A stretch of 17,828 nt of DNA from IMG/VR virus record IMGVR_UViG_2563366803_000003, one strand, 5' to 3'. Position 1 is the stretch's first letter, and every line of letters starts with the position of its first letter. The position numbers and the translations under genes are program-made. The notes beneath the pieces are model-generated. The model had not been told where the DNA came from and made no database searches. It saw nothing but the letters and a program-made list of their open reading frames with translations. This stretch comes from a virus (lineage: Duplodnaviria; Heunggongvirae; Uroviricota; Caudoviricetes). Shown here in pieces: positions 1 through 15,118 of this stretch.

Positions 1-504
1 TTATTGATAGTGTTTTATGTTCAGATAATGCCCGATGACTTTGTCATGCAGCTCCACCGATTTTGAAAACGACAGCGACTTCCGTCCCAGCCGTGCCAGG
101 TGCTGCCTCAGATTCAGGTTATGCCGCTCAATTCGCTGCGTATATCGCTTGCTGATTACGTGCAGCTTTCCCTTCAGGCGGGATTCATACAGCGGCCAGC
201 CATCCGTCATCCATATCACCACGTCAAAGGGTGACAGCAGGCTCATAAGACGCCCCAGCGTCGCCATAGTGCGTTCACCGAATACGTGCGCAACAACCGT
301 CTTCCGGAGCCTGTCATACGCGTAAAACAGCCAGCGCTGGCGCGATTTAGCCCCGACATAGCCCCACTGTTCGTCCATTTCCGCGCAGACGATGACGTCA
401 CTGCCCGGCTGTATGTGCGAGGTTACCGACTGCGGCCTGAGTTTTTTAAGTGACGTAAAATCGTGTTGAGGCCAACGCCCATAATGCGGGCTGTTGCCCG
501 GCAT
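1..504 (-). CDS. insB: IS1 InsB (167 aa) transposase catalytic part, expressed as InsAB' by -1 frameshift
   Basis: Translation [25 protein letters not shown]... matches IS1 InsB as recalled. Confidence 0.95.
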
Positions 505-698
505 CCAACGCCATTCATGGCCATATCAATGATTTTCTGGTGCGTACCGGGTTGAGAAGCGGTGTAAGTGAACTGCAGTTGCCATGTTTTACGGCAGTGA
601 GAGCAGAGATAGCGCTGATGTCCGGCGGTGCTTTTGCCGTTACGCACCACCCCGTCAGTAGCTGAACAGGAGGGACAGCTGATAGAAACAGAAGCCAC
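423..698 (-). CDS. insA: IS1 InsA (91 aa, Cys4 zinc-finger/HTH transposition regulator)
   Basis: Translation [22 protein letters not shown]... matches IS1 InsA as recalled; A6C slippery site (gttttttaa on + strand near 442-450) precedes insB. Confidence 0.95.
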
Positions 699-753
699 TG
701 GAGCACCTCAAAAACACCATCATACACTAAATCAGTAAGTTGGCAGCATCACC

Positions 754-1570: not shown

Positions 1571-2734
1571 TTACGCCTTCTTTATATCCTCCATAATTCC
1601 AGAGTGGGACATATTTGGGACATTATCACCAAAAATGTCGTCTATTTTCCTCGCATGCTCTGTCAAATGATTAGGCGCAAGGTGAGCATACCTACGAACC
1701 ATTTCTATGGACTCCCATCCGCCCATTTCCTGAAGCACTGATAATGGGACGCCTGACTGAATCAGCCAGCTTGCCCAGGTGTGTCTGAGGTCATGGAAAC
1801 GGAAATCTTCAATTCCTGCACGACGACAAGCTGATAGCCATGATGTCTTGCTGTCGATGCGCATCTTCCTGACCGCAGGCGTTGATGTTCCATCTGCTCG
1901 CTTAGCCGCCTTGGTATGTACAAACACCCATTTGTGATGCTTGCCTATTTGATCACGCAACACTTTACAGGCGGTATCGTTCAGCGCCACACCAATGGCG
2001 CGGTTTGATTTGCTCTCTTCTGGATTCACCCAGGCAACTCGTCGCTGCATGTCGATTTGTTGCCATTCCAGATTTATGATGTTCGACTTTCTCAGACCAG
2101 TTGCCAGCGCAAACTTGACGACAGATTTCAGTGGTTCGGGGCACTCATCAATAAGGCGTTTTGCTTCCTCCTTTTCCAGCCATCTGACTCGCTTGTTTCT
2201 GACCGCTGGTATCTTGATGACAGGCGCTTTTTCCAGCCACTTCCAGTCGCGTTCTGCAGCACGGAGAATGGCCTTTATCATGGCAAGATGCTTTGCCTTT
2301 GTCTGAGTTGATACTGGCTTTGGTTCATAAACAGGCAGTTCTTTACCTTTCCTGATGGCGGCCTGAACTTTCTGTTTCCATATTTCTTTCGTCTTTCTGT
2401 TATGCATTCTGCTTACAGCAGAGTAAATCTTTGCCTCCGAGATATCTTTAAGCCTTATACCCTCAAAATGTTCAAGCCAGAACTCAATCCGGCTTTTATC
2501 TGAATCGAGAGATTTTTTATCAGCTTTTTCCTCAAGCCATCTTAGGCAGGCCTCTTCAAAAGTGACATCAGGTAAATCCCCTAGCTTTTCTACTCGCCAG
2601 AGTTCTGCTTTTCGCTTGTCGTGCAACTCCTGAGCTTGCCGCTTGTCCTTTGTGCCAAGAGATTCCTTAATTCGTTTCCCGCCCGGGAGCGAATACGAGG
2701 CATACCATATTTCATTTCTGCGGAAGAGTGACAT
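1571..2734 (-). CDS. intD: Prophage tyrosine integrase (DLP12 IntD-like, 387 aa)
   Basis: C-terminal catalytic region with [10 protein letters not shown]... and ...VRRYAHL motifs (R-H-R-Y family); positioned 16 nt from the 3' end of argU. Confidence 0.93.
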
Positions 2735-3258: not shown

Positions 3259-3477
3259 TCACAGTCCCCATTGTTTGTTCTTAAGTTCGATCTCCTCCTG
3301 GCAACTTGCACAAGTCCGACAACCCTGAACAGCCAGGCGTCTTCGCTCATCTATCGGATCGCCACACTCACAACAATGAGTTGCGGATACAGTCTGGTAG
3401 TTCTGACGACGCATTTTTATTGCTGTATTGCGCTGTAATTCTTCGATTTCTGATGCTGAATCAATGATGTCTGCCAT
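3259..3477 (-). CDS. TraR/DksA-family C4 zinc-finger protein (72 aa)
   Basis: CxxC-x17-CxxC signature (CCECGDPIDERRRLAVQGCRTCASC) typical of phage TraR/DksA-like proteins. Confidence 0.65.
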   Translation of the reverse strand: MADIIDSASEIEELQRNTAIKMRRQNYQTVSATHCCECGDPIDERRRLAVQGCRTCASCQEEIELKNKQWGL

Positions 3478-3529
3478 CTTCCATTAATCCCTGAATTGTT
3501 GGTTAATACGCTTGAGGATGAATGCGAAT

Positions 3530-3556
3530 AATAAAAAAGGAGCCTGTAGCTCCCTG
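3530..3556 (-). terminator. Possible rho-independent terminator (short GC stem ggagc/gctcc followed by T6 on minus strand)
   Basis: Hairpin 3539-3553 with A-tract 3533-3538 on + strand (= T-tract on minus), 20 nt downstream of the 3576 stop. Confidence 0.35.
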
Positions 3557-3575
3557 ATGATTTTGCTTTTCATGT

Positions 3576-3857
3576 TCATCGCTCCTTAAAGACGCCGTTT
3601 AACATGCCGATCGCCAGACTTAAATGAGTCGGTGTGAATCCCATCAGCGTTACCGTTTCGCGGTGCTTCTTCAGTACGCTACGGCAAATGTCATCGACGT
3701 TTTTATCCGGAAACTGCTGTCTGGCTTTTTTGATTTCAGAGTTAGCCTGACGGGCAATGCTGCGAAGGGCGTTTTCTTGCTGAGGTGTCATTGAACAAGT
3801 CCCATGTCGGCAAGCATAAGCACACAGAATATGAAGCCCGCTGCCAGAAAAATGCAT
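3576..3857 (-). CDS. Hypothetical lambdoid b-region protein (93 aa; alternative start at 3791 gives 72 aa)
   Basis: ORF in the minus-strand early-left gene string between xis and exo; no recognisable motif. Confidence 0.4.
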   Translation of the reverse strand: MHFSGSGLHILCAYACRHGTCSMTPQQENALRSIARQANSEIKKARQQFPDKNVDDICRSVLKKHRETVTLMGFTPTHLSLAIGMLNGVFKER

Positions 3858-3867
3858 TCAGTGGTTG

Positions 3868-4059
3868 TCATACCTGGTCTCTCTCATCTGCTTCTGCTTT
3901 CGCCACCATCATTTCCAGCTTTTGTGAAAAGGATGCGGCTAACGTATGAAATTCTTCGTCTGTTTCTACTGGTATTGGCACAAACCTGACTCCAATTTGA
4001 GCGAGGCTATGTGCCATCTCGATACTCGTTCTTAACTCAACGGGAGATGCTTTGTGCAT
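3868..4059 (-). CDS. Small lambdoid early protein, 63 aa (lambda orf63-like by size and position)
   Basis: GGGAG SD upstream of ATG at 4059; same orientation and tight packing with exo-proximal genes. Confidence 0.45.
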   Translation of the reverse strand: MHKASPVELRTSIEMAHSLAQIGVRFVPIPVETDEEFHTLAASFSQKLEMMVAKAEADERDQV

Positions 4060-4220
4060 ACAGCTCCCCGTTTATTATTTATCTCCTCAGCCAGCCGCTG
4101 TGCTTTCAGTGGATTTCTGATAACAGAAAGGCCGGGAAATACCCAGCCTCGCTTTGTAATGGAGTAGACGAAAGTGATCGCGCCTACCCGGATATTATCG
4201 TGAGGATGCGTCATCGCCAT
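4032..4220 (-). CDS. Small lambdoid early protein, 62 aa (lambda orf60a-like by position immediately upstream of exo)
   Basis: ORF overlapping exo start region; GGGGAG upstream of ATG at 4220. Confidence 0.45.
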
Positions 4221-4891
4221 TGCTCCCCAAATACAAAACCAATTTCAGCCAGTGCCTCGTCCATTTTTTCGATGAACTCCGGCACCATCTCGTCAAAACT
4301 CGCCATGTACTTTTCATTCCGCTCAATCACGACATAATGCAGGCCTTCACGCTTCATGCGCGGGTCATAGTTGGCAAAGTACCAGGCATCTTTTCGCGTC
4401 ACCCACATGCTGTACTGCACCTGGGCCATGTAAGCCGATTTTATTGCCTCGAAACCACCGAGCCGGAATTTCATGAAATCCCGGGAGGTAAACGGGCATT
4501 TCAGTTCAAGGCCGTTGCCGTCACTGCATAAACCATCGGGAGAGCAGGCGGTGCGCATACTTTCGTCGCGATAGATGATCGGGGATTCAGCAATATTCAC
4601 GCCGGAAGTGAATTCAAACAGGGTTCTGGCGTCGTTCTCGTACTGTTTTCCCCAGGCCAGCGCCTTAGCATTAACTTCCGGAGCCACACCGGTGCAAACC
4701 TCAGCCAGCAGGGTGTGGAAGTAGGACATTTTCATGTCAGGCCACTTCTTTCCTGAGCGGGGCTTTGCTATCACGTTGTGAACTTCTGAAGCGGTGATGA
4801 CGCCGAGCCGTAATTTGTGCCATGCATCATCCCCCTGTTCGACAGCTCTCACGTCGATCCCGGTACGCTGCAGGATAATGTCCGGTATCAT
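4211..4891 (-). CDS. exo: Lambda-type 5'-3' exonuclease Exo (Red-alpha), 226 aa
   Basis: Translation [65 protein letters not shown]... is near-identical to lambda Exo as recalled; same length. Confidence 0.95.
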
Positions 4892-5673
4892 GCTGCCACC
4901 TTCTGCTCAGTGGCTTTCTGTTTCAGGAATCCAAGAGCTTTCACTGCTTCGGCCTGTGTCATTTCTGACGATGCGCGAATGTCGCGGCGAAATATCTGGG
5001 AACAGAGCGGCAATAAGTCGTCATCCCATGTTTTATCCAGGGCGATCAGCAGAGTGTTAATCTCCTGCATGGTTTCATCGTTAACCGGAGTGATGTCGCG
5101 TTCTGGCTGACGTTCTGCAGTGTATGCAGTATTTTCGACAATGCGCTCGGCTTCATCCTTGTCATAGATACCAGCAAATCCGAAGGCCAGACGGGCACAC
5201 TGAATCATTGTTTTATGCCGTAACATCCGTTTGGGATGCGACTGCCACGGCCCCGTGATTTCTCTGCCTTCGCGGGTTTTGAATGGTTCGCGGCGGCATT
5301 CATCCATCCATTCGGTAACGCAGATCGGATGATTACGGTCCTTGCGGTAAATCCGGCATGTACAGGATTCATTGTCCTGCTCAAAGTCCATGCCATCAAA
5401 CTGCTGGTTTTCATTGATGATGCGGGACCAGCCATCAACGCCCACCACCGGAACAATGCCGTTCTGCTTATCAGGGAAGGCGTAAATTTCTTTCGTCCAC
5501 GGATTAAGGCCGTACTGGTTGGCGACGATCAACAATGCGATGAACTGCGCATCGCTGGCATCACCTTTAAATGCCGTCTGGCGAAGAGTGGTGATCAGTT
5601 CCTGTGGGTCGACAGAATCCATGCCGACACGTTCAGCCAGCTTCCCTGCCAGCGTTGCGAGTGCTGTACTCAT
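4888..5673 (-). CDS. bet: Lambda-type single-strand annealing protein Bet (Red-beta), 261 aa
   Basis: Translation [66 protein letters not shown]... matches lambda Bet; ATGA overlap with exo as in lambda. Confidence 0.95.
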
Positions 5674-5678
5674 CCGTT

Positions 5679-5975
5679 TTATACCTCTGAATCAATATCA
5701 ACCTGGTGGTGAGCAATGGTTTCAACCATGTACCGGATGTGTTCTGCCATGCGCTCCTGAAACTCAACATCGTCATCAAACGCACGGGTAATGGCTTTTT
5801 TGCTGGCCCCGCAGCGTTGCAAATGATCGATGCAGAGTGATTCAAACAGGTGCTGTGGAAGACCTTTTTCCATGTCGTCTGCCAGTTCTGACTCTTTCTC
5901 TTCACGGGCGATCTGCTGGTAGTGACGTGCCCAGCTCAGACCCTCAAGACGATCCTGAATGTAATAAGCGTTCAT
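5679..5975 (-). CDS. gam: Lambda Gam (RecBCD inhibitor), 98-aa GamS-length form
   Basis: Translation [56 protein letters not shown]... matches lambda Gam. Confidence 0.93.
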
Positions 5976-6050
5976 GGCTGAACTCCTGAAAATGGCTGTG
6001 AAAATATCGCCCGCGAAATGCCAGGCTGATTAGGAAAACAGGAAAGGGGA

Positions 6051-6257
6051 TTAGTGATTCAGGCCATTACCGCGTCCGTCGAAAAAAACTTCCACGAGCA
6101 AATCACGGGTATAAGTGCGCTCGATGCCGCGATGCAGATATAGCCGTCCGCGTAAATTAGCTGATGCAGTCCAGGTACCATCTTTGTGTTTGACCAGCAT
6201 TCCTGGCATGACCGCACCTCGATTAACGGTCTGCGTTCCGTAATGTTGATGAACCAT
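6051..6257 (-). CDS. Small early-left protein (68 aa from ATG at 6257 with AGGAG SD), possibly Kil-like host division inhibitor by position next to gam; in-frame upstream extension to 6461 is Arg-rich
   Basis: Strong SD (AGGAGTTTTT-ATG) at the internal start; first ORF downstream of the predicted pL; function assigned by synteny only. Confidence 0.4.
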
Positions 6258-6529
6258 AAAAACTCCTGCCCGTAAGCTGGGCTGCTGAACATATAGAGAC
6301 TTCTGCGCGTATTCAGGCGGTGGATGGCCGCCGGTTGTCATAACTAAGCCGCCTCGTTGAAGCGACTGAGGTATGAGGTGTTGAGTTGATTTCAGCTGGT
6401 CACACCGACGTTCACGCGTCCGTTTCACCCCTCGCACTCCCCGGAGCCTGCCGAAATTCAAGCTGCGGATCTAAGCGGTCATCGCAACGGTGAATCAGGT
6501 GGTTGCCGTATCGTTGTGTTGTTGCGACA

Positions 6530-6600
6530 TGGTGATAATAGCTATTGCTATTGGTGGTATCAATACTTATTGCTATTGATTGATGTGTTTTGATATTAAC
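6530..6600 (-). promoter_or_regulatory. Predicted pL/oL: minus-strand -35 TTGATA (+ coords 6558-6563) and -10 TATTAT (6535-6540) with 17-bp spacer, overlapped by repeated GCTATTG operator-like motifs
   Basis: Hexamers and spacing read directly; motif TTGCTATTG (6545-6553, 6570-6578) is shared with the cI-cro intergenic region. Confidence 0.4.
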
Positions 6601-6712
6601 TGTTTGATAGCAAAAAGAATTAATTTTGTGACTTGCATCGCATAGCGATAACTGAAGGGAGGTTGTGGTGGTTTTTCGAACGGTTTGTGTGATGAGGGGA
6701 GGGGACAAAAGA

Positions 6713-6745
6713 AAACCCGGCACGGTGGCCGGGACGTTTTATTTC
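6713..6745. terminator. Bidirectional rho-independent terminator (stem cccggc...gccggg, flanked by T-runs on both strands); likely end of the cI operon (tImm-like)
   Basis: aaaacccggcacggtggccgggacgttttatttc immediately after the stop of the 6739-7251 gene. Confidence 0.65.
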
Positions 6746-7251
6746 AAAGAAAAATTATGACTAGCGTATCTTGGAAGAAATTCATATAGTGTTAATGTCT
6801 TAACGCCGTGAGAAGCAGCAGCATCCGGGATCATTATTCTTTTTTTAGGTTTGCCACCGGATGGTTTCTCATGGGTAATAATAGTATATCCATGTGTCAT
6901 CGCATGGGCTATTAAAAAAGCATCTGCTTTTTCATGGCTTGCAAAATCAAACTTTGCCTTTTCGGTAACATCTAATTTAGTTGACCAATTTATTAACTTT
7001 GCATAATTTTCTATTGAACTATGCTCATCTTCGAAGAATGATGATGGTAACTCTTCTTTAATCCATTTACACAATGGATCATCTTTTGCACATAGTTCTT
7101 TTTTTACAGCATTAATGCTATAAATCAGACCATTCATGTGTAAAGCGAGAAGAAAATCCCAAAATATTTTGCAATAATTGAAGTTATATGCAAAGTTTTT
7201 TGCCTCTATGAAGACATTACTATCAATTAAGAATTTTCCATTATGAATCAT
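6739..7251 (-). CDS. DUF4411-type PIN-like putative nuclease (170 aa); candidate effector of a two-gene defense/toxin module
   Basis: Size, N-terminal FLIDSNVFI strand with conserved Asp and later acidic residues fit a PIN-like fold; ATGA start/stop overlap with upstream metallopeptidase gene; AT-rich composition. Confidence 0.6.
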   Translation of the reverse strand: MIHNGKFLIDSNVFIEAKNFAYNFNYCKIFWDFLLALHMNGLIYSINAVKKELCAKDDPLCKWIKEELPSSFFEDEHSSIENYAKLINWSTKLDVTEKAKFDFASHEKADAFLIAHAMTHGYTIITHEKPSGGKPKKRIMIPDAAASHGVKTLTLYEFLPRYASHNFSLK

Positions 7252-8387
7252 AGAGATTCTCGTTTTTTATAAAATTCAACAACTGTATCTGCTTTTACAT
7301 TTAGCAGTACGCCTGCTTCCCTTAATGGTAATTGTTGAGACATTGCTTTGGAAATTATTATATTCGTAAGTTTTGGACTGTTACGAACAGGTAATGTGTT
7401 AAAGAAAGAACCACCATTAGATTCTTTTTTGGGCTTATTGTAAGCTTGATCTTTAATTATCTCCAAAGTGTTTCTTTCTATCAAATCTAATTGTAACGCT
7501 TTGATTGCACAAGCGAAATCACTAACCTTAAATAACTTAGAAACCTCTTTTACTCGATAATAATTATTATCGCTGGATGCATTAAGCCAGAAAGATTTGA
7601 AGAGATTATCAGGCATTAAGATTTCAGCAGCAACTTTATTACAAAAAGATTCTATGTTTTTTTCTGTGTCCCACCCAGAGACTCCATCGACTCCAAGCCA
7701 AAGATGAGCCACCTCATGAAATAATGTAAATACCTGCGCAGATAACGCGTCCGAGCTATTTACAAAAATGATCGGAGCAACGCTATCAGATATACAGAAA
7801 CCACGAAACTCTCGCGTGTCAAGTTTTCTTTTATTATTATTACCCACAACACCATTCTTGAAAACTAATACGCCAGTGTCTTCTATTAGTTTTGCCACTT
7901 TAGAAAAATAGCTCTCAAAAGTGACATTTTTTATCTCTTTTTGTATATCAAAATGTATTGTGTTTGCTATGTCTGTAGCAACAACCTTATAATTTAATTT
8001 TCTATTAAATTTAAATTTACCAATAAAATCGAGTGGATCATCATTACCATTTTCTCTTAAATAGTCTTTGTACCACTCAAGTTTATATTCTATATCATAG
8101 TAAACATCAAAAAAATCTTTTCCTAACTCACGGCTATTTATAGCTTGCCTTAAGTCAGGGATCTTGGGTTTGGCTGGAGTTGGTGGCGTTTCAAGAAATA
8201 AAAAACCGAAAGGGATTCCTCCAATTTTTGCCAGTTTTTCTGCTGCGGATTTACTTACCACTCCGTTAAGAAATTTATTAATCTTTTTGGGCATGACTTG
8301 GTCAGCAAGAGTTTCGATAGAAACTCCTTGAGAATTTGCTATCCAATCAATCATCTTCCTAGACAATTGAAATTCAACCGCTGCCAT
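7248..8387 (-). CDS. HTH + ImmA/IrrE-family (COG2856/M78-like) zinc metallopeptidase, 379 aa
   Basis: HExxH motif in FTLFHEVAHLWLG; N-terminal HTH-like segment (IDWIANSQGVSIETLADQV); AGGTGA SD upstream of ATG at 8387; translationally coupled to DUF4411 gene. Confidence 0.7.
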   Translation of the reverse strand: MAAVEFQLSRKMIDWIANSQGVSIETLADQVMPKKINKFLNGVVSKSAAEKLAKIGGIPFGFLFLETPPTPAKPKIPDLRQAINSRELGKDFFDVYYDIEYKLEWYKDYLRENGNDDPLDFIGKFKFNRKLNYKVVATDIANTIHFDIQKEIKNVTFESYFSKVAKLIEDTGVLVFKNGVVGNNNKRKLDTREFRGFCISDSVAPIIFVNSSDALSAQVFTLFHEVAHLWLGVDGVSGWDTEKNIESFCNKVAAEILMPDNLFKSFWLNASSDNNYYRVKEVSKLFKVSDFACAIKALQLDLIERNTLEIIKDQAYNKPKKESNGGSFFNTLPVRNSPKLTNIIISKAMSQQLPLREAGVLLNVKADTVVEFYKKRESL

Positions 8388-8516: not shown

Positions 8517-9209
8517 CTACCCATGCTTTCTATATGTCTGCGGCATGCTCCCGATGACTTTCCCGAAGATGAACACGCGGTTCATCTCGTCTTTCTCGAT
8601 CGGGTCCCACGGTGAGTAGCTCTTGTTATCAGAGATAACCAGCAGCTTATCCTTCATCATTTGCAGGCGCTTTACATGGGCGGTGTCGTCATACAGAAAC
8701 GCATAGATACCATCACCGTCGAAAGATTTAACAGTGATATCAACGAACAGAAGATCACCTGGTTCGATCGTTCCTGACATGCTGTCACCGCGTACGTTAA
8801 TGATGCGGATATTTTCTGCCTTCCTGCCATCGAACATGTGACGAGCATCGTCAAACGAGTACTCAACCGAGCGTAGAACTTCTACAAACTCACGGTTGAT
8901 GACTCCCGGCCCGGCACTCACTTCTATATCAAGAACGTCAATCTTGAAGTATTTGGGATGGTTGGCAGTAGGCTTCCCTAATTGTTGACCGTCATTTCTC
9001 ATCGGGCCTATGCCTGATGAGAGCCACTCTGTTCGAACACCCAATGCATTAGCTATTTCAACAATTTTTGTTGAGCCGCGCGCGTTGCCGCTTGTCAGTC
9101 TCCAGATTGTGGGTTGAGCTACCCCAGACGCCTTTGCAAGAGCGCCTTGAGACATTCCAGATTGTTCCATCGCTAGGTTTAAGCGATCAGCAAGAGTTTC
9201 TTTTTTCAT
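8517..9209 (-). CDS. cI: cI-type prophage repressor (N-terminal XRE HTH + C-terminal S24/LexA-like autopeptidase), about 230 aa, leaderless
   Basis: HTH segment LADRLNLAMEQSGMSQGALAKASGVAQPTIWRL; S24 peptidase signature around GDSMSGTIEPGDLLFVD with downstream Lys (HVKRL); ATG at 9209 lies 7 nt after a -10 hexamer. Confidence 0.85.
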   Translation of the reverse strand: MKKETLADRLNLAMEQSGMSQGALAKASGVAQPTIWRLTSGNARGSTKIVEIANALGVRTEWLSSGIGPMRNDGQQLGKPTANHPKYFKIDVLDIEVSAGPGVINREFVEVLRSVEYSFDDARHMFDGRKAENIRIINVRGDSMSGTIEPGDLLFVDITVKSFDGDGIYAFLYDDTAHVKRLQMMKDKLLVISDNKSYSPWDPIEKDEMNRVFIFGKVIGSMPQTYRKHG

Positions 9210-9319
9210 AAGTTTTAATTTATACGCTTGCGTATTGATGGTCAAAACACGTTTTGCTATTGTTATGATTAATACGCATTGCTATTATTTATTCATTGCA
9301 ATACCAATAGGAATTGATA
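9210..9319. promoter_or_regulatory. Divergent immunity control region. Predicted pRM on minus strand (-35 TTGACC at + 9240-9245, -10 TAAATT at 9217-9222, leaderless cI) and pR on plus strand (-35 TTGTTA 9260-9265, -10 TATTAT 9283-9288); operator-like repeats TTGCTATT and palindromes
   Basis: Hexamers and 17-bp spacings read directly; motif shared with 6540-6580. Confidence 0.5.
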
Positions 9320-9547
9320 ATGACAAATCAAACCATTCAACTCGCAATCAGTATTACAGGTAGTCAAAAACGACTGGCAGATCTATGCGGTGTAGCCCAA
9401 CCCACTGTTTGGCGTTGGCTACACGGTGGCGGAATTGATGCCCGCTATGTAATGAAAATTGTCTCAGCCACTGGTGGAAAGATTAAACCAGCAGATATTC
9501 GTCCCGACCTCGCACCATTGTTTAACGCGAGTAATTCTGCCGCCTAA
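9320..9547 (+). CDS. cro: Cro-like HTH regulator of the YdaS family (about 75 aa)
   Basis: HTH segment GSQKRLADLCGVAQPTVWRWL; AGGAA SD 6 nt upstream of ATG 9320; divergent from cI. Confidence 0.7.
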   Translation: MTNQTIQLAISITGSQKRLADLCGVAQPTVWRWLHGGGIDARYVMKIVSATGGKIKPADIRPDLAPLFNASNSAA

Positions 9548-9571
9548 ACTGCGGCGTTAACTGATAAGGCA

Positions 9572-10117
9572 ATGACTATGCAACCACTTACATACCAACA
9601 GACTAGCGGATTTAGCCCGACTGTGGTGATAAATCGTTCTCAAACAAAACAAGCTCCAGGCCACGAAAAAATCCGTGATGCCGTCCGCGCCTGGTCGGCT
9701 GCAGATAATCAGGATGTTGTTGCCGCACTCATTGTGAATGAGTATCGGGAGCAGGGCGGCGGCACCATCGATTTCCCTGATGATGTCAGCCGTGCACGCC
9801 AGAAGCTGTTCCGCTTCCTCGATAACAAATTCGATTCTGAAAAATACCGAAATAACGTGCGTGAACTGACCCCGGCAATTCTGGCGGTACTACCGCTGGA
9901 ATATCGCGGTTACCTGGTTGAGCAGGATAGCTTTATGGCTAGGTTGGCTGAAATGGAAAAGGAACTCAGTGAGGCAAAACAGGCTGTCATTCTCAACGCA
10001 CCACGCCACCAGAAACTGAAGGAGATGAGTGAAGGCATTGTGTCGATGTTTCGAGTGGACCCGGATCTGGCTGGTCCATTGATGGCGATGGTCACCACCA
10101 TGCTGGGGGCAATATGA
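9572..10117 (+). CDS. YdaT-family protein (181 aa), occupying the cII position
   Basis: Recalled resemblance (..EYREQGGG.., ..LTPAILAVLP..) to Rac YdaT-type proteins; always paired with YdaS-type cro; position between cro and O. Confidence 0.5.
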   Translation: MTMQPLTYQQTSGFSPTVVINRSQTKQAPGHEKIRDAVRAWSAADNQDVVAALIVNEYREQGGGTIDFPDDVSRARQKLFRFLDNKFDSEKYRNNVRELTPAILAVLPLEYRGYLVEQDSFMARLAEMEKELSEAKQAVILNAPRHQKLKEMSEGIVSMFRVDPDLAGPLMAMVTTMLGAI

Positions 10118-10203
10118 CAGGTTCAAAAATGGCGAAAGTCGGTCTGCGGGAACAGAACCGACTTTCAGGTGCAAATCGTAACACACTCATTGCGGGAGGA
10201 ATT

Positions 10204-11133
10204 ATGGCAAACACTGCTGAGATATTCAATTTTCCAGTGCCGGATGCGGCACAAAAGGAGCCGCGCGTGGCAGATCTCGATGATGGTTATACGCGCATTG
10301 CAAATGAGTTGCTGGAAGCTGTGATGCTGGCCGGATTAACACAGCACCAGCTTCTGGTCTTCCTGGCTGTCATGCGCAAAACATATGGCTTTAATAAAAA
10401 ACTGGATTGGGTGAGCAACGAGCAACTTTCCGAGTTGACCGGGATATTGCCGCACAAGTGTTCTGCTGCAAAAAGTGTTCTGGTAAAGCGTGGGATTTTT
10501 ATTCAGAGCGGGCGGAATATCGGCATCAATAATGTGGTCAGTGAATGGTCAACATTACCCGAATCGGGTAAGAAAAATAAAGTTTACCTGAAAGAGGTAA
10601 ATTTACCTGAATCAGGTAAGAAAAGTTTACCTAAATCAGGTAAAGGCGTTTACCCGAATCAGGTAAACACAAAAGACAAACTAACAAAAGACAATATAAA
10701 ACCTTTATCGTCCGAGAATTCTGGCGAATCCTCTGACCAGCCAGAAAACGATCTTCCTGTGGTGAAACCGGATGCTGCAATTCAGAGCGGCAGCAAGTGG
10801 GGGACAGCAGAAGACCTGACCGCCGCAGAGTGGATGTTTGACATGGTGAAGACCATCGCGCCATCAGCCAGAAAACCGAATTTTGCAGGGTGGGCTAACG
10901 ATATCCGCCTGATGCGTGAACGTGATGGACGTAACCACCGCGACATGTGCGTGCTGTTCCGCTGGGCATGCCAGGACAACTTCTGGTCCGGTAACGTGCT
11001 GAGTCCGGCTAAACTCCGCGACAAGTGGACCCAGCTCGAAATCAACCGTAACAAGCAACAGGCTGGCGTGACAGCCAGAAAACCAAAACTCGACCTGACA
11101 AACACTGACTGGATTTACGGGGTGGATTTATGA
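10204..11133 (+). CDS. O: Lambda O-type replication initiator (about 309 aa from ATG 10204 with GGGAGG SD)
   Basis: N-terminus MANTAEIFNFP...VADLDDGYTRIANELLEAV...LLVFLAVMRKTYGFNK resembles lambda O N-terminal domain; internal iteron array. Confidence 0.85.
   Translation: MANTAEIFNFPVPDAAQKEPRVADLDDGYTRIANELLEAVMLAGLTQHQLLVFLAVMRKTYGFNKKLDWVSNEQLSELTGILPHKCSAAKSVLVKRGIFIQSGRNIGINNVVSEWSTLPESGKKNKVYLKEVNLPESGKKSLPKSGKGVYPNQVNTKDKLTKDNIKPLSSENSGESSDQPENDLPVVKPDAAIQSGSKWGTAEDLTAAEWMFDMVKTIAPSARKPNFAGWANDIRLMRERDGRNHRDMCVLFRWACQDNFWSGNVLSPAKLRDKWTQLEINRNKQQAGVTARKPKLDLTNTDWIYGVDL
10555..10710 (+). repeat. Phage origin of replication: five 17-bp palindromic iterons TTACC(C/T)GAATC(A/G)GGTAA (10555-10571, 10584-10600, 10603-10619, 10627-10643, 10649-10665) followed by an A-rich tract
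   Basis: Direct repeats read in sequence inside the O gene, as in ori-lambda. Confidence 0.8.
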
Positions 11134-11831
11134 AAAACATCGCCGCACAGATGGTTAACTTTGACCGTGAGCAGATGCGTCGGATCGCCAACAACATGCC
11201 GGAACAGTACGACGAAAAGCCGCAGGTACAGCAGGTAGCGCAGATCATCAACGGTGTGTTCAGCCAGTTACTGGCAACTTTCCCGGCGAGCCTGGCTAAC
11301 CGTGACCAGAATGAACTGAACGAAATCCGCCGCCAGTGGGTTCTGGCTTTCCGGGAAAACGGGATCACCACAATGGAACAGGTTAACGCTGGAATGCGCG
11401 TAGCCCGTCGGCAGAATCGACCATTCCTGCCATCACCCGGGCAGTTTGTCGCCTGGTGCCGGGAAGAAGCATCTGTTAACGCCGGGCTGCCAAACGTCAG
11501 CGAGCTGGTTGATATGGTTTACGAGTATTGCCGGAAGCGTGGCCTGTATCCGGATGCAGAGTCTTATCCGTGGAAATCGAACGCGCATTACTGGTTGGTT
11601 ACCAACTTGTACCAGAACATGCGGGCCAATGCGCTGACTGACGCGGAATTACGGCGCAAGGCTGCCGATGAACTGACCTGTATGACAGCGCGAATTAACC
11701 GTGGTGAGACGATACCTGAACCAGTAAAACAACTTCCTGTTATGGGCGGTAGACCTCTAAATCGTGCACAGGCTCTGGCGAAGATCGCAGAAATTAAAGC
11801 TAAGTTCGGACTGAAAGGAGCAATTGTATGA
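11130..11831 (+). CDS. P: Lambda P-type replication protein (DnaB helicase loader), 233 aa
   Basis: Translation MKNIAAQMVNFDREQMRRIANNMPEQYDEKPQVQQVAQIINGVFSQLLATFPASLANRDQNELNEIRRQW... matches lambda P; ATGA overlap with O. Confidence 0.95.
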   Translation: MKNIAAQMVNFDREQMRRIANNMPEQYDEKPQVQQVAQIINGVFSQLLATFPASLANRDQNELNEIRRQWVLAFRENGITTMEQVNAGMRVARRQNRPFLPSPGQFVAWCREEASVNAGLPNVSELVDMVYEYCRKRGLYPDAESYPWKSNAHYWLVTNLYQNMRANALTDAELRRKAADELTCMTARINRGETIPEPVKQLPVMGGRPLNRAQALAKIAEIKAKFGLKGAIV

Positions 11832-12130
11832 CGGGCAAAGAGGCAATTATTCATTACCTGGGGACGCATAAGAGCTTCTGTGCACAGGACGTTGCCGCGG
11901 TAACAGGCGCAACCGTAACCAGCATAAATCAGGCTGCGGCTAAAATGGCGCGGGCAGGAATCCTGGTCGTTGATGGTAAGGTCTGGCGAACGGTGTATTA
12001 CCGGTTCGCTACCAGAGAAGAACGGGAAGGAAAGGTGAGCACGAATCTGATTTTTAAGGAGTGTCGCCAGAGTGCCGCGATGAAACGGGTATTGAGGGTA
12101 TATAAAAGAACATCAATGGGAACACAATGA
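11828..12130 (+). CDS. ren: Ren (Rex exclusion-escape protein), 100 aa
   Basis: Translation MTGKEAIIHYLGTH.SFCA.DVAA.TGATVTSINQAAAKMARAG... matches lambda Ren; ATGA overlap with P. Confidence 0.9.
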   Translation: MTGKEAIIHYLGTHKSFCAQDVAAVTGATVTSINQAAAKMARAGILVVDGKVWRTVYYRFATREEREGKVSTNLIFKECRQSAAMKRVLRVYKRTSMGTQ

Positions 12131-12197
12131 TGAAACAGGTGAGTTGAGTTCAAACTGTAGTACAATTCTCTCCAGTTTGAACAGGAAAGAATATGCT

Positions 12198-12530
12198 ATG
12201 AACCCTTATATTTATCTTGGTGGTGCAATACTTGCAGAGGTCATTGGTACAACCTTAATGAAGTTTTCAGAAGGTTTTACACGGTTATGGCCATCTGTTG
12301 GTACAATTATTTGTTATTGTGCATCATTCTGGTTATTAGCTCAGACGCTGGCTTATATTCCTACAGGGATTGCTTATGCTATCTGGTCAGGAGTCGGTAT
12401 TGTCCTGATTAGTTTACTGTCATGGGGATTTTTCGGCCAACGGCTGGACCTGCCAGCCATTATAGGCATGATGTTGATTTGTGCCGGTGTGTTGGTTATT
12501 AATTTATTGTCACGAAGCACACCACATTAA
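12198..12530 (+). CDS. emrE: EmrE small multidrug-resistance efflux transporter, 110 aa (prophage moron)
   Basis: Translation MNPYIYLGGAILAEVIGTTLMKFSEGFTRLWPSVGTIICYCASFWLLAQTLAYIPTGIAYAIWSGVGIVLISLLSWGFFGQRLDLPAIIGMMLICAGVL... matches EmrE; AGGAAAG SD. Confidence 0.95.
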   Translation: MNPYIYLGGAILAEVIGTTLMKFSEGFTRLWPSVGTIICYCASFWLLAQTLAYIPTGIAYAIWSGVGIVLISLLSWGFFGQRLDLPAIIGMMLICAGVLVINLLSRSTPH

Positions 12531-12784: not shown

Positions 12785-13624
12785 ATGAAAAAAGCCATAG
12801 CATATATGCGATTTTCATCACCAGGTCAGATGTCTGGTGACTCATTAAACCGACAGAGAAGACTTATTGCTGAATGGTTAAAGGTAAATAGTGATTATTA
12901 TCTTGATACCATAACATATGAAGATTTAGGATTAAGTGCATTCAAAGGAAAGCATGCACAATCAGGAGCTTTTTCGGAATTTTTAGATGCTATAGAGCAT
13001 GGTTATATATTGCCAGGAACTACATTGTTAGTTGAAAGTCTGGACAGACTTTCAAGAGAAAAAGTCGGTGAAGCGATTGAACGTCTGAAATTGATTTTGA
13101 ATCACGGTATTGATGTTATAACTCTTTGCGACAATACAGTCTATAATATTGACTCTTTGAATGAGCCATATTCATTAATAAAAGCCATACTTATAGCACA
13201 AAGGGCAAATGAAGAAAGCGAGATAAAGTCAAGTCGGGTTAAATTATCATGGAAGAAAAAACGGCAGGATGCAATGGAATCAGGTACGATTATGACGGCG
13301 TCTTGTCCGAGATGGCTCTCCTTAGATGACAAAAGAACGGCTTTTGTTCCAGACCCCGACAGGGTGAAAACTATTGAGCTAATTTTTAAACTCAGGATGG
13401 AAAGGCGCTCATTGAATGCAATAGCCAAGTATTTAAATGATCATGCTGTAAAGAATTTCTCAGGAAAAGAAAGTGCATGGGGACCTTCTGTAATTGAAAA
13501 ATTATTAGCGAATAAAGCTCTGATAGGTATATGCGTACCTTCATATCGTGCAAGAGGGAAAGGGATAAGTGAAATCGCTGGCTATTATCCCAGAGTTATA
13601 TCAGATGATTTGTTTTACGCTGTA
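12785..13624 (+). pseudogene. ybcK: ybcK-like serine recombinase, truncated after about 280 codons by IS1
   Basis: N-terminal resolvase-type catalytic domain (AIAYMRFSSPGQMSGDSLNRQRR... with catalytic Ser), reading frame runs into IS1 left terminus at 13625. Confidence 0.8.
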
Positions 13625-13639
13625 GGTAATGACTCCAAC

Positions 13640-14143
13640 TTATTGATAGTGTTTTATGTTCAGATAATGCCCGATGACTTTGTCATGCAGCTCCACCGAT
13701 TTTGAAAACGACAGCGACTTCCGTCCCAGCCGTGCCAGGTGCTGCCTCAGATTCAGGTTATGCCGCTCAATTCGCTGCGTATATCGCTTGCTGATTACGT
13801 GCAGCTTTCCCTTCAGGCGGGATTCATACAGCGGCCAGCCATCCGTCATCCATATCACCACGTCAAAGGGTGACAGCAGGCTCATAAGACGCCCCAGCGT
13901 CGCCATAGTGCGTTCACCGAATACGTGCGCAACAACCGTCTTCCGGAGACTGTCATACGCGTAAAACAGCCAGCGCTGGCGCGATTTAGCCCCGACATAG
14001 CCCCACTGTTCGTCCATTTCCGCGCAGACGATGACGTCACTGCCCGGCTGTATGCGCGAGGTTACCGACTGCGGCCTGAGTTTTTTAAGTGACGTAAAAT
14101 CGTGTTGAGGCCAACGCCCATAATGCGGGCTGTTGCCCGGCAT
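13640..14143 (-). CDS. insB: IS1 InsB (the longer 194-aa ORF in the track is the out-of-frame upstream extension used for InsAB' frameshifting)
   Basis: Same frame and sequence as copy A InsB, with one amino-acid difference (H vs R). Confidence 0.93.
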
Positions 14144-14337
14144 CCAACGCCATTCATGGCCATATCTATGATTTTCTGGTGCGTACCGGGTTGAGAAGCG
14201 GTGTAAGTGAACTGCAGTTGCCATGTTTTACGGCAGTGAGAGCAGAGATAGCGCTGATGTCCGGCGGTGCTTTTGCCGTTACGCACCACCCCGTCAGTAG
14301 CTGAACAGGAGGGACAGCTGATAGAAACAGAAGCCAC
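14062..14337 (-). CDS. insA: IS1 InsA
   Basis: Identical protein to copy A InsA. Confidence 0.95.
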
Positions 14338-14392
14338 TGGAGCACCTCAAAAACACCATCATACACTAAATCAGTAAGTTGGCAGCATCACC

Positions 14393-14512
14393 CTCACTAA
14401 AGCAGGTTTCTGGCTGGATGATGCTCAGGTCGTTGATTACCGCGTTGTGAAGATGCCTGTTACCAAAGGTGGGAGGCTGGAACTGACCATCACCGAAATG
14501 GGGAATGAATGA
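14393..14512 (+). pseudogene. rusA: 3' fragment (last 39 codons) of rusA Holliday-junction resolvase, fused directly to the IS1 terminus
   Basis: Translation [39 protein letters not shown] equals the RusA C-terminus as recalled; no start codon or N-terminal part. Confidence 0.8.
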
Positions 14513-14649: not shown

Positions 14650-14734
14650 AGTCAGAGATAACAATCAACTAATACTGTTTTATTGATTTTTGCTTGTAAT
14701 TGGCGTTCTGGTCTGATTTTTGTGGAGTAAGTTG

Positions 14735-15118
14735 ATGCGTGATATTCAGATGGTTCTTGAGCGTTGGGGAGCGTGGGCGGCTAATAATCATGAAGATGTG
14801 ACCTGGTCGTCCATTGCCGCCGGTTTTAAGGGATTAATTCCTTCAAAAGTAAAATCTCGCCCGCAATGTTGTGACGATGACGCGATGATCATTTGCGGGT
14901 GCATGGCCCGTCTGAAAAAGAACAACAGCGATTTGCACGATTTATTAGTAGATTATTATGTAGTCGGTATGACATTCATGTCACTGGCAGGTAAGCATTG
15001 CTGCTCTGATGGTTATATCGGGAAAAGGTTACAAAAGGCTGAGGGCATAATTGAAGGGATGTTAATGGCATTAGATATCCGGTTAGAGATGGATATCGTT
15101 GTTAATAACTCTAATTAA
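14735..15118 (+). CDS. quuD: Late-gene antiterminator Q (QuuD-like), 127 aa
   Basis: Translation [24 protein letters not shown]...[16 protein letters not shown]... with Cys-rich zinc-binding motif; GGAG SD 7 nt upstream. Confidence 0.85.

Follow-up and report, generated by a model that had tools for sequence, protein, structure and literature searches.

A phi80-type cro/cII pair of the YdaS and YdaT families in a DLP12-like prophage, and a candidate CII-dependent promoter inside cII

In phage lambda, CII acts at PRE, a promoter located within the 5' part of the cII gene itself. Analogues of Cro and CII are also known from the prophages Rac and CP-933P under the names YdaS and YdaT, and the label of 'toxin' given to these proteins is now obsolete (Jobling 2018, PMC5917428; Jurenas 2021, PMC8630535; Prolic-Kalinsek 2023, PMC9986795; Wons 2025, PMC11879457). 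The YdaT of CP-933P, a homologue of phi80 CII encoded upstream of a lambda-like O gene, is a tetramer that binds TTGATT-N6-AATCAA and activates the promoter PRE933P (PMC8630535, PMC9986795); its box has been described as downstream of PRE. The YdaT of Rac recognizes ATGATT-N6-AATCAA at the start codon of its own gene, and switches on a reverse promoter from which racR is transcribed. Its footprint also covers the region around the ydaS start, its box works from about 190 bp away on this promoter, which lies in ydaS, and R57 is the DNA-contacting arginine of its recognition helix (PMC11879457).

In this report, we analyze a locus of this kind within a stretch of 17,828 nucleotides, designated throughout as the window. 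Our main finding is that positions 9320 to 10117 are very probably best explained as a switch of the immunity region, composed of a Cro and a CII analogue; the target promoter of CII may reside within the first 22 codons of CII's own gene. The cro/cII pair as such is ordinary and already described: the homology between YdaT and phi80 CII is published, and such pairs are common in E. coli prophages.

The window carries a lambdoid, DLP12-like prophage sitting at a tRNA-Arg(tct) gene (1479-1555), which we take as argU from its place beside a DLP12-type integrase (Table 1). A response-regulator gene cut by a copy of IS1 adjoins the prophage. Within it, the genes for a DUF4411 protein and for an ImmA/IrrE metallopeptidase form a two-gene insert in the position of rexAB. 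No homologue of cIII was identified in the window and no N-like gene was seen in it, the PL leader being likewise without N. A put-like antiterminator RNA was sought in the PL leader (6258-6530), where the fold had a z-score of 0 and Rfam gave no match; an alignment to the putL-like element of HK639 was unconvincing, and the candidate was rejected.

Table 1. Features of the window, ordered by position
Feature	Position	Strand	Basis or remark
int	1571-2734	-	
exo, bet, gam	4211-5975	-	
kil	6051-6257	-	
OL/PL-like region	6535-6620	-	Operator motif and promoter scan
DUF4411 protein	6739-7251	-	
HTH plus ImmA/IrrE metallopeptidase	7248-8387	-	
cI-like prophage repressor, 230 aa, N-terminal HTH and C-terminal S24 self-cleaving domain	8517-9209	-	
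OR-like operator cluster	9222-9285		Repeats and motif search
YdaT-box-like site TTGATAATGACAAATCAA, spanning the cro start codon	9314-9331		One mismatch to TTGATT-N6-AATCAA
cro-like gene, YdaS family, 75 aa, all-alpha HTH	9320-9547	+	
Small GC hairpin GCCGC-N5-GCGGC across the cro stop codon	9541-9555	+	Alignments
cII-like gene, YdaT family, phi80-CII subtype, 179 aa	9578-10117	+	
Candidate -10 hexamer TAGTCT	9605-9600	-	TAnnnT conservation
Dyad in cII codons 17-22, GTGATAAATCGTTCTCAA, core TGAT-N8-CTCA	9626-9643		Conserved at +50
oop/M3-like small antisense RNA unit	10122-10229	-	Promoter scan, alignment, fold
O-like replication initiator	10204-11133	+	
O, P, ren	up to 12130	+	
emrE	12144-12530 (ORF as listed)	+	
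ybcK recombinase	12785-13705, cut at 13640 by a second IS1	+	Truncated
Q-type antiterminator, porin, lysis genes	14720 onwards	+ and -	

The repressor matches the Pfam families Peptidase_S24 (67.2 bits) and HTH_3 (28.3 bits), as well as PHROG 4 and 6201 (CI-like repressor). Its translation, read by eye, holds an Ala-Gly site (SAGPG), a serine in GDSM and a lysine in VKRL, motifs that are consistent with S24 self-cleavage. The adjoining OR-like cluster is made of three related 14-bp sites, 25 bp apart: ATACGCTTGCGTAT (9222-9235), ACACGTTTTGCTAT (9247-9260) and ATACGCATTGCTAT (9272-9285). Two promoter-like sites found by the promoter scan overlap it, one rightward (TTGTTA-17-TATTAT, 9260-9288) and one leftward (TTGACC-17-TAAATT, 9245-9217); the latter would yield a nearly leaderless cI mRNA. 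A search of the window with the 14-bp operator motif detected a single other cluster, that of OL, with sites at 6538-6551, 6563-6576 and 6607-6620 and, among them, a leftward promoter-like site (TTGATA-17-TATTAT, 6563-6535). By analogy with OR1-3 of lambda, we infer an OR/OL-like layout, in which the two promoters next to the repressor gene would play the roles of PR and PRM.

The cro-like gene opens the rightward operon; a stretch of 110 bp, with the operator-like repeats, separates it from the divergent S24 repressor gene. Residues 6-64 of its 75-aa product match PF15943 (YdaS) at 54.6 bits, for a gathering cut-off of 30, and the ORF scores 85.5 bits against PHROG 35 ('transcriptional repressor'). 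The protein is 57% identical to HK639 Cro and, by BLASTP, 32% identical to Rac YdaS over 63 aa (E = 6e-10), while its sequence matches in the PDB are to the Xylella Xfaso1 Cro (3bd1 and 5w8y). Lambda Cro gives a weak HTH match only. The GC hairpin at the end of the gene is common to phi80, HK639 and several other loci, and is not followed by a T-run.

The cII-like ORF matches PF06254 (YdaT) at 102.7 bits, for a gathering cut-off of 21, and scores 226.5 bits against PHROG 163 ('CII-like transcriptional activator'), residues 17-179 aligning with the whole profile (1-168 of 168). An earlier note on this DNA, made from the letters alone, had proposed the YdaS and YdaT families for the pair and had placed the two genes at the cro and cII positions right of the repressor. 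Both proposals hold: the profile searches find the family-level similarity, and the two ORFs lie on the plus strand beside the divergent S24 repressor gene. Its remark that the toxin label of YdaT had given way to a cII-like function agrees with the literature (PMC5917428, PMC8630535, PMC9986795, PMC11879457). The length of 181 aa that it gave for the second protein has to be corrected, as the true start is almost certainly the ATG at 9578 (179 aa) and not the one at 9572 (181 aa): RefSeq places the start at 9578, in phage PhiR47_2 unrelated sequence extends upstream right up to the equivalent of this ATG, and all 47 diverse homologues begin with MQ or MH at the same codon.

An AF2 model of the 179-aa protein (pLDDT 78) begins with a disordered stretch (residues 1-25); an HTH domain of five helices and then a long helix follow, as in YdaT, and two extra helices make up the C-terminus. 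Foldseek returned 3c4r and 8bt1 as the top PDB structures (probability 1.0, TM 0.69-0.71, 27-28% identity), all matches beyond these YdaT structures having E > 0.4, and the sequence matches in the PDB are to the same two entries. The arginine R57 in recognition helix alpha3 of Rac YdaT aligns with R79 of the window protein, the Rac motif 'YHRWL' being 'LFRFL' here; R79 is invariant in 32 homologues, and the flanking His and Trp are changed to Phe. Lambda CII gave no BLASTP alignment with the 179-aa protein at E <= 100, and the protein has no Pfam lambda-CII match. Judged by these comparisons, it is an analogue of lambda CII, and not a member of its family.

The gap between cro and cII is 30 bp long and holds no terminator-like site, and cII is therefore probably made together with cro, without an N-dependent step. 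Unlike in lambda, neither nutR nor tR1 is present between the two genes. On the other side of cII, the promoter of the M3-like RNA (TTGAAT-17-CATAAT, 10229-10201) aligns with lambda Po and with the M3 promoters of phi80 and HK639. The transcript, of about 70 nt, has a strong hairpin (10134-10166) and then a U-run just past the cII stop; its fold has a free energy of -24.6 kcal/mol and a z-score of -3.9. The O ORF could open at 10114, but this RNA unit, a family match that begins only at residue 31 and the GGAGG ribosome-binding site of the ATG at 10204 together indicate that O starts at the latter codon. Five ori iterons (TTACCYGAATCRGGTAA) are present in the O-like gene at 10555-10671, and they account for a match to the Rfam family 'rliD' (10556-10669, 18.5 bits where the gathering score is 50), which we discarded.

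To examine constraint at the DNA level, phi80-type cII genes were collected from phages and from one genome per species, and reduced to a set of 47 sharing less than 90% DNA identity. Relatives from IMG/VR, all at least 96% identical, were unusable for this codon analysis and served only for the comparison of cro types given below. Where the amino acid is the same, codon identity reaches 0.65-0.76 in codons 1-25, versus about 0.45-0.5 elsewhere in cII, and it is not raised in equally variable protein regions elsewhere in the gene (n = 47). Among the 179 codons, with Met and Trp codons set aside, only codons 4, 9, 17 and 21 have a third base conserved at 90% or more. Part of this 5' constraint could reflect translation-initiation or mRNA features.

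Two motifs stand within this constrained segment. The first is TAnnnT on the minus strand at codons 8-10, present in 47/47 cII genes in spite of varying amino acids; codon 9 ends in T in all 47, whichever of 8 residues it encodes. The second is the dyad of codons 17-22: TGAT-N8-[AC]TCA, the core of the experimentally defined YdaT box, is found at +50 of cII in 40 of the 47 loci. Codon 17 encodes Met, Leu or Val, in every case as xTG, and codon 18 is ATA in 41/47, although ATA represents 14% of Ile codons elsewhere. At codon 21 the third base is again T in every gene, across 7 residues, and the Gln codons at position 22 are 25 CAA and 15 CAG, a CAA share of 62% that compares with 12% elsewhere. 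The spacing of the two motifs is fixed, TAnnnT being situated 22 bases left of the dyad. In the window itself the right half of the dyad is weakened (CTCA instead of ATCA), which leaves 4 mismatches to the 12-base consensus. The core dyad does not occur elsewhere in the window, and since none is present near int or in Q, analogues of PI and PaQ are not evident.

These observations can be assembled into the following model. Positions 9320-10117 would be the rightward early part of the immunity, or lysis-lysogeny, region. The Cro analogue, encoded by the first gene of the PR operon, would bind the three OR operators in common with the S24-type cI. The CII analogue, if it behaves as the YdaT proteins do, would be a tetramer-forming HTH factor made early after infection; by the same analogy it would bind DNA and promote lysogeny by activating the repressor gene through leftward transcription that runs antisense to cro. 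Its target would be a CII-dependent, PRE-like leftward promoter in the 5' end of cII, with the dyad as activator site and TAGTCT as the -10. The predicted start, about 7 nt past the -10 at about 9593, puts the centre of the dyad at -41.5, and there is no consensus at the -35 position. A generic sigma-70 scan detected no leftward promoter in 9300-10200, a result expected of an activator-dependent promoter, which does not count as positive evidence for one. An alternative leftward promoter with TTGATA (the reverse complement of +16 to +21) as its -35 was rejected, since no usable -10 follows. The arrangement of box and promoter proposed here differs from that of Rac (about 190 bp apart) and of CP-933P (box downstream), and would thus be a class-II geometry without precedent in the family.

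The dyad might serve otherwise, as an autoregulatory or roadblock site or as one anchor of a DNA loop whose other end is the box at the cro start, with the real PRE-like promoter elsewhere, for example inside cro; we regard this as the less likely reading, though one of appreciable probability. The Rac box acts from about 190 bp on a promoter in ydaS, and Rac YdaT also binds around the ydaS start. Moreover, the window has a second and better box 312 bp upstream of the dyad, at the cro start codon: it is the one match to TTGATT-N6-AATCAA in the window at up to 1 mismatch, for 0.14 expected (at up to 2 mismatches, 3 matches were found for 1.9 expected, which is not significant). Against this, the upstream box is not conserved across the phi80-type loci, being found only with this type of cro, and a roadblock or loop anchor alone leaves unexplained the TAnnnT that is invariant in 47/47 genes at a fixed distance from it. 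The upstream box is a candidate secondary CII site, perhaps a second contact of the tetramer, as around the Rac ydaS start.

Generalizing the embedded promoter to the Enterobacteriaceae, so that phi80-type cII would carry its own CII-dependent establishment promoter in codons 8-22, is a tentative step, to which we give slightly less than an even chance. The -10 and the dyad would then be written into a disordered tail whose amino acids otherwise vary freely, and activator gene and target promoter would recombine as one cassette behind any cro/cI specificity. We found no description of an embedded cII promoter of phi80-type phages in the literature, older phi80 work being outside the search. 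The footprint in codons 8-22 is a modest, possibly useful new lead, which comes with a precise prediction of the location of the phi80-type establishment promoter.

By blastn, window positions 3282-6057 align with lambda 30418-33193 at 96.7% identity and cover the genes from orf61 to exo, bet and gam. Positions 10667-12103 align with lambda 39119-40555 at 94% identity and cover P, ren and the C-terminal portion of O, whereas there is no lambda match between 6058 and 10666. The non-lambda block is 4.6 kb long, and encompasses kil, PL/OL, the two-gene insert, cI, OR, cro, cII, the M3-like RNA and, in O, the N-terminal portion that binds the origin; identity to lambda resumes just past the last of lambda's own iterons. 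The pattern is that of a classical lambdoid mosaic, in which immunity and origin-specificity blocks are swapped between conserved exo/bet/gam and P/ren segments. The earlier note had recognized the lambda-like flanks and had proposed modular exchange. Both are borne out, but the exchanged block is not the cro/cII pair alone, and the arrangement is no special event, being common and already annotated in cultured phages and E. coli genomes.

Exchange has also occurred within the block. One cII allele (at least 96% identity) is found behind two unrelated cro/operator types, each in about 40 of 80 IMG/VR loci, and the junction of the two types is exactly the cII ATG. The module is therefore mobile as a unit, which fits a CII site carried within cII; an embedded promoter would explain how cII recombines behind different cro/cI alleles, because activator and target would travel together. 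In other phages, phi80-type cII is paired with short RacR-like repressors and with replication genes of the DnaC or helicase type.

Could a lambda genome have acquired the pair recently from a Rac-like prophage? Rac does have members of both Pfam families, and flanks 94-97% identical to lambda would agree with such an origin, but we consider it very improbable. Rac has no DNA similarity to the window by blastn, and at the protein level identity is 32-35% over partial lengths (35% over 96 aa for YdaT). Its repressor and replication genes are different, namely the short RacR with ydaU and ydaV, where the window has an S24 cI with O and P. Phi80, HK639, mEp237 and HK225 are much closer, and the block that differs from lambda extends over kil, PL/OL, cI and the origin, in an arrangement that is old and widespread. 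The term 'Rac-type' used for the pair in the earlier note is right for the families only; it is too loose for the nearest relatives, which are phi80 CII and HK639 Cro.

That the genes form a type II toxin-antitoxin pair, with YdaT as toxin and YdaS as antitoxin, is hardly credible and already largely refuted: it draws on the Pfam names 'YdaS_toxin' and 'YdaT_toxin', on the RefSeq name 'toxin YdaT domain-containing protein' and on the toxicity of ectopically expressed Rac YdaS or YdaT (PMC5917428, PMC11879457), whereas both proteins are of the HTH DNA-binding type and occupy cro/cII positions between a cI-type repressor and O/P, the second is 66% identical to the genetically defined cII product of phi80 and has no match in a PADLOC search, lambda CII is likewise reported to be toxic when overproduced, and the literature rejects the toxin-antitoxin model and reports transcriptional activation.

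The locus is widely distributed. Of 5426 complete E. coli genomes, 2225 contain a match to part of a 1.8-kb query; the match extends over at least 80% of the query in 717 genomes, and three genomes match at 99% or more. Homologous proteins form 709 clusters across the Enterobacteriaceae. The main value of the present analysis is one of annotation: the RefSeq name with its mention of a toxin persists in thousands of genomes, for what is, in all likelihood, a CII-type lysogeny regulator of very common E. coli lambdoid prophages and of cultured phages.

The nearest described systems include cultured Bievrevirus and related phages (4A7, Lambda_4C10, D2, 1W, 3W, Perceval, PhiR70_1, PhiR68_2 and others), which are 97.7% identical to the window in DNA from cI to O. 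In 4A7, Perceval and others, the genes are annotated as cI, as cro or 'transcriptional repressor', and as 'CII-like transcriptional activator'. Between cI and PL these phages carry other genes (in 4A7, an ASCH protein and a partner), and not the ImmA/IrrE and DUF4411 pair.

Phi80 has the same gene order, with cI, cro (gene 30), cII, M3 RNA and O (gene 15), the same gap of about 30 bp between cro and cII, a cI of the S24 type, three operators at either side and a replication module of the O/P type. Its CII (180 aa versus 179) is 66% identical to the window protein over the full length; the two cII genes are only 68% identical in DNA. Unlike the window, phi80 has an N gene and nutL, and its specificity is another one, cro being 34% identical over 44 aa and cI 23%. 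In a tblastn search of a phage collection, the mEp237 CII was also 66% identical to the window protein, and those of HK639 and HK225 were 52% identical. HK639 resembles the window in its cI and three operators, in the sizes of cro (about 75 aa), of the gap after it (about 30 bp) and of cII (about 180 aa), in an M3-like RNA followed by O, and in a left operon devoid of N; it differs by an annotated putL-like antiterminator RNA and, in part, by its replication genes.

YdaS and YdaT of Rac and CP-933P (PDB 3c4r and 8bt1) share with the window pair the Pfam families, the fold of HTH and long helix (TM 0.70), the arginine of the recognition helix, the cro/cII position and a dyad of the TGAT-N8-ATCA type where the cII-like gene begins, or close by. 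Identity is only 27-35%, however, and the repressor partners are RacR and PaaR2. Compared with these YdaT proteins, the window protein has two extra C-terminal helices and a disordered N-terminal extension of 27 residues, the very segment that carries the DNA motifs. Lambda, finally, is similar in position, in transcription from PR, in the presumed roles of the two proteins and in an oop-type antisense RNA with a conserved promoter; its CII site is a TTGC-N6-TTGC direct repeat, whereas the motif of the window is a dyad.

Codon 4 of cII (9587-9589; Leu, CTT) is the fourth codon whose third-base conservation exceeds 90%, and the block around it, CACTTAC.TATCAACA (+8 to +23), is strongly conserved. 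Two repeats resembling ATCA half-sites lie 11 bp apart within this block; the window differs in having ACCA where ATCA is otherwise found. The block may be an extra weak CII site or may belong to the initial transcribed region of a leftward promoter, the proposed CII-dependent one within cII codons 8-22. Upstream, in many loci, a conserved leader, CTAACCACGAAAGGGAAAGCA, separates the cII ATG from a GC hairpin that carries the cro stop codon. The hairpin is also present in phi80 (about 3960-3980 of that sequence) and HK639. The leader between hairpin and cII ATG in the window differs from CTAACCACGAAAGGGAAAGCA. The same hairpin is common to several cro genes that otherwise differ.

At the other end of cII, the long ORF of the replication initiator gene O opens with an ATGA at 10114 that overlaps the cII stop, and RefSeq places the start of O in relatives at the same site. 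The family match covers this ORF only from residue 31 onwards, and a GGAGG ribosome-binding site precedes ATG 10204. We consider 10114 to be probably a mis-start; O would then begin at ATG 10204, so that the 86-bp interval (within window 10114-10203) would hold the oop/M3-like RNA.

Features of the window outside the cII coding region
Feature	Coordinates	Strand	Remark
IS1 copy 1	1-752		window edge; cuts response-regulator gene
Response-regulator ORF, 190 aa	727-1299		Pfam Response_reg
Bidirectional terminator-like hairpin	6716-6733		after two-gene insert
Two-gene insert	6739-8387	-	rexAB position, cI-PL interval
Conserved GC hairpin, GCCGCC..GGCGGC	9541-9555		cro stop codon in loop
IS1 copy 2	13640-14407		cuts ybcK serine recombinase at 13640

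The two IS1 copies are in direct orientation. The gene truncated by the first is presumably fimZ, judging from its location beside DLP12. The intact relative in strain SCU-152 has the ybcK 3' end and the nin-region genes ybcN, ninE, ybcO, rusA and ylcG; the window lacks them, and the Q-type antiterminator gene (14720-15118) therefore directly follows the second IS1. This loss was probably an IS1-mediated deletion.

No N-like antiterminator gene was found between the PL-like promoter and kil (window 6258-6535, minus strand), an interval made up of leader only (about 190-270 nt). Alignment of this leader to the HK639 putL-like RNA was not convincing, its folding was no better than that of shuffled sequence, and an Rfam search of it gave no match. 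Over 60 nt (6318-6376) the leader matches, at 84% identity, the DNA immediately beyond the phi80 tL1A terminator.

The insert encodes a 379-aa protein combining an HTH with an ImmA/IrrE (M78) metallopeptidase, which has weak PADLOC matches to CapP and RmrA, and a 170-aa DUF4411 protein; the stop and start codons of the two genes overlap. In other phages that share this immunity region, different genes occupy the cI-PL interval, such as an ASCH protein with a partner, or 'GevA/GevT' in PV340567. The interval appears to be an exchangeable slot for defence or toxin-antitoxin-like genes.
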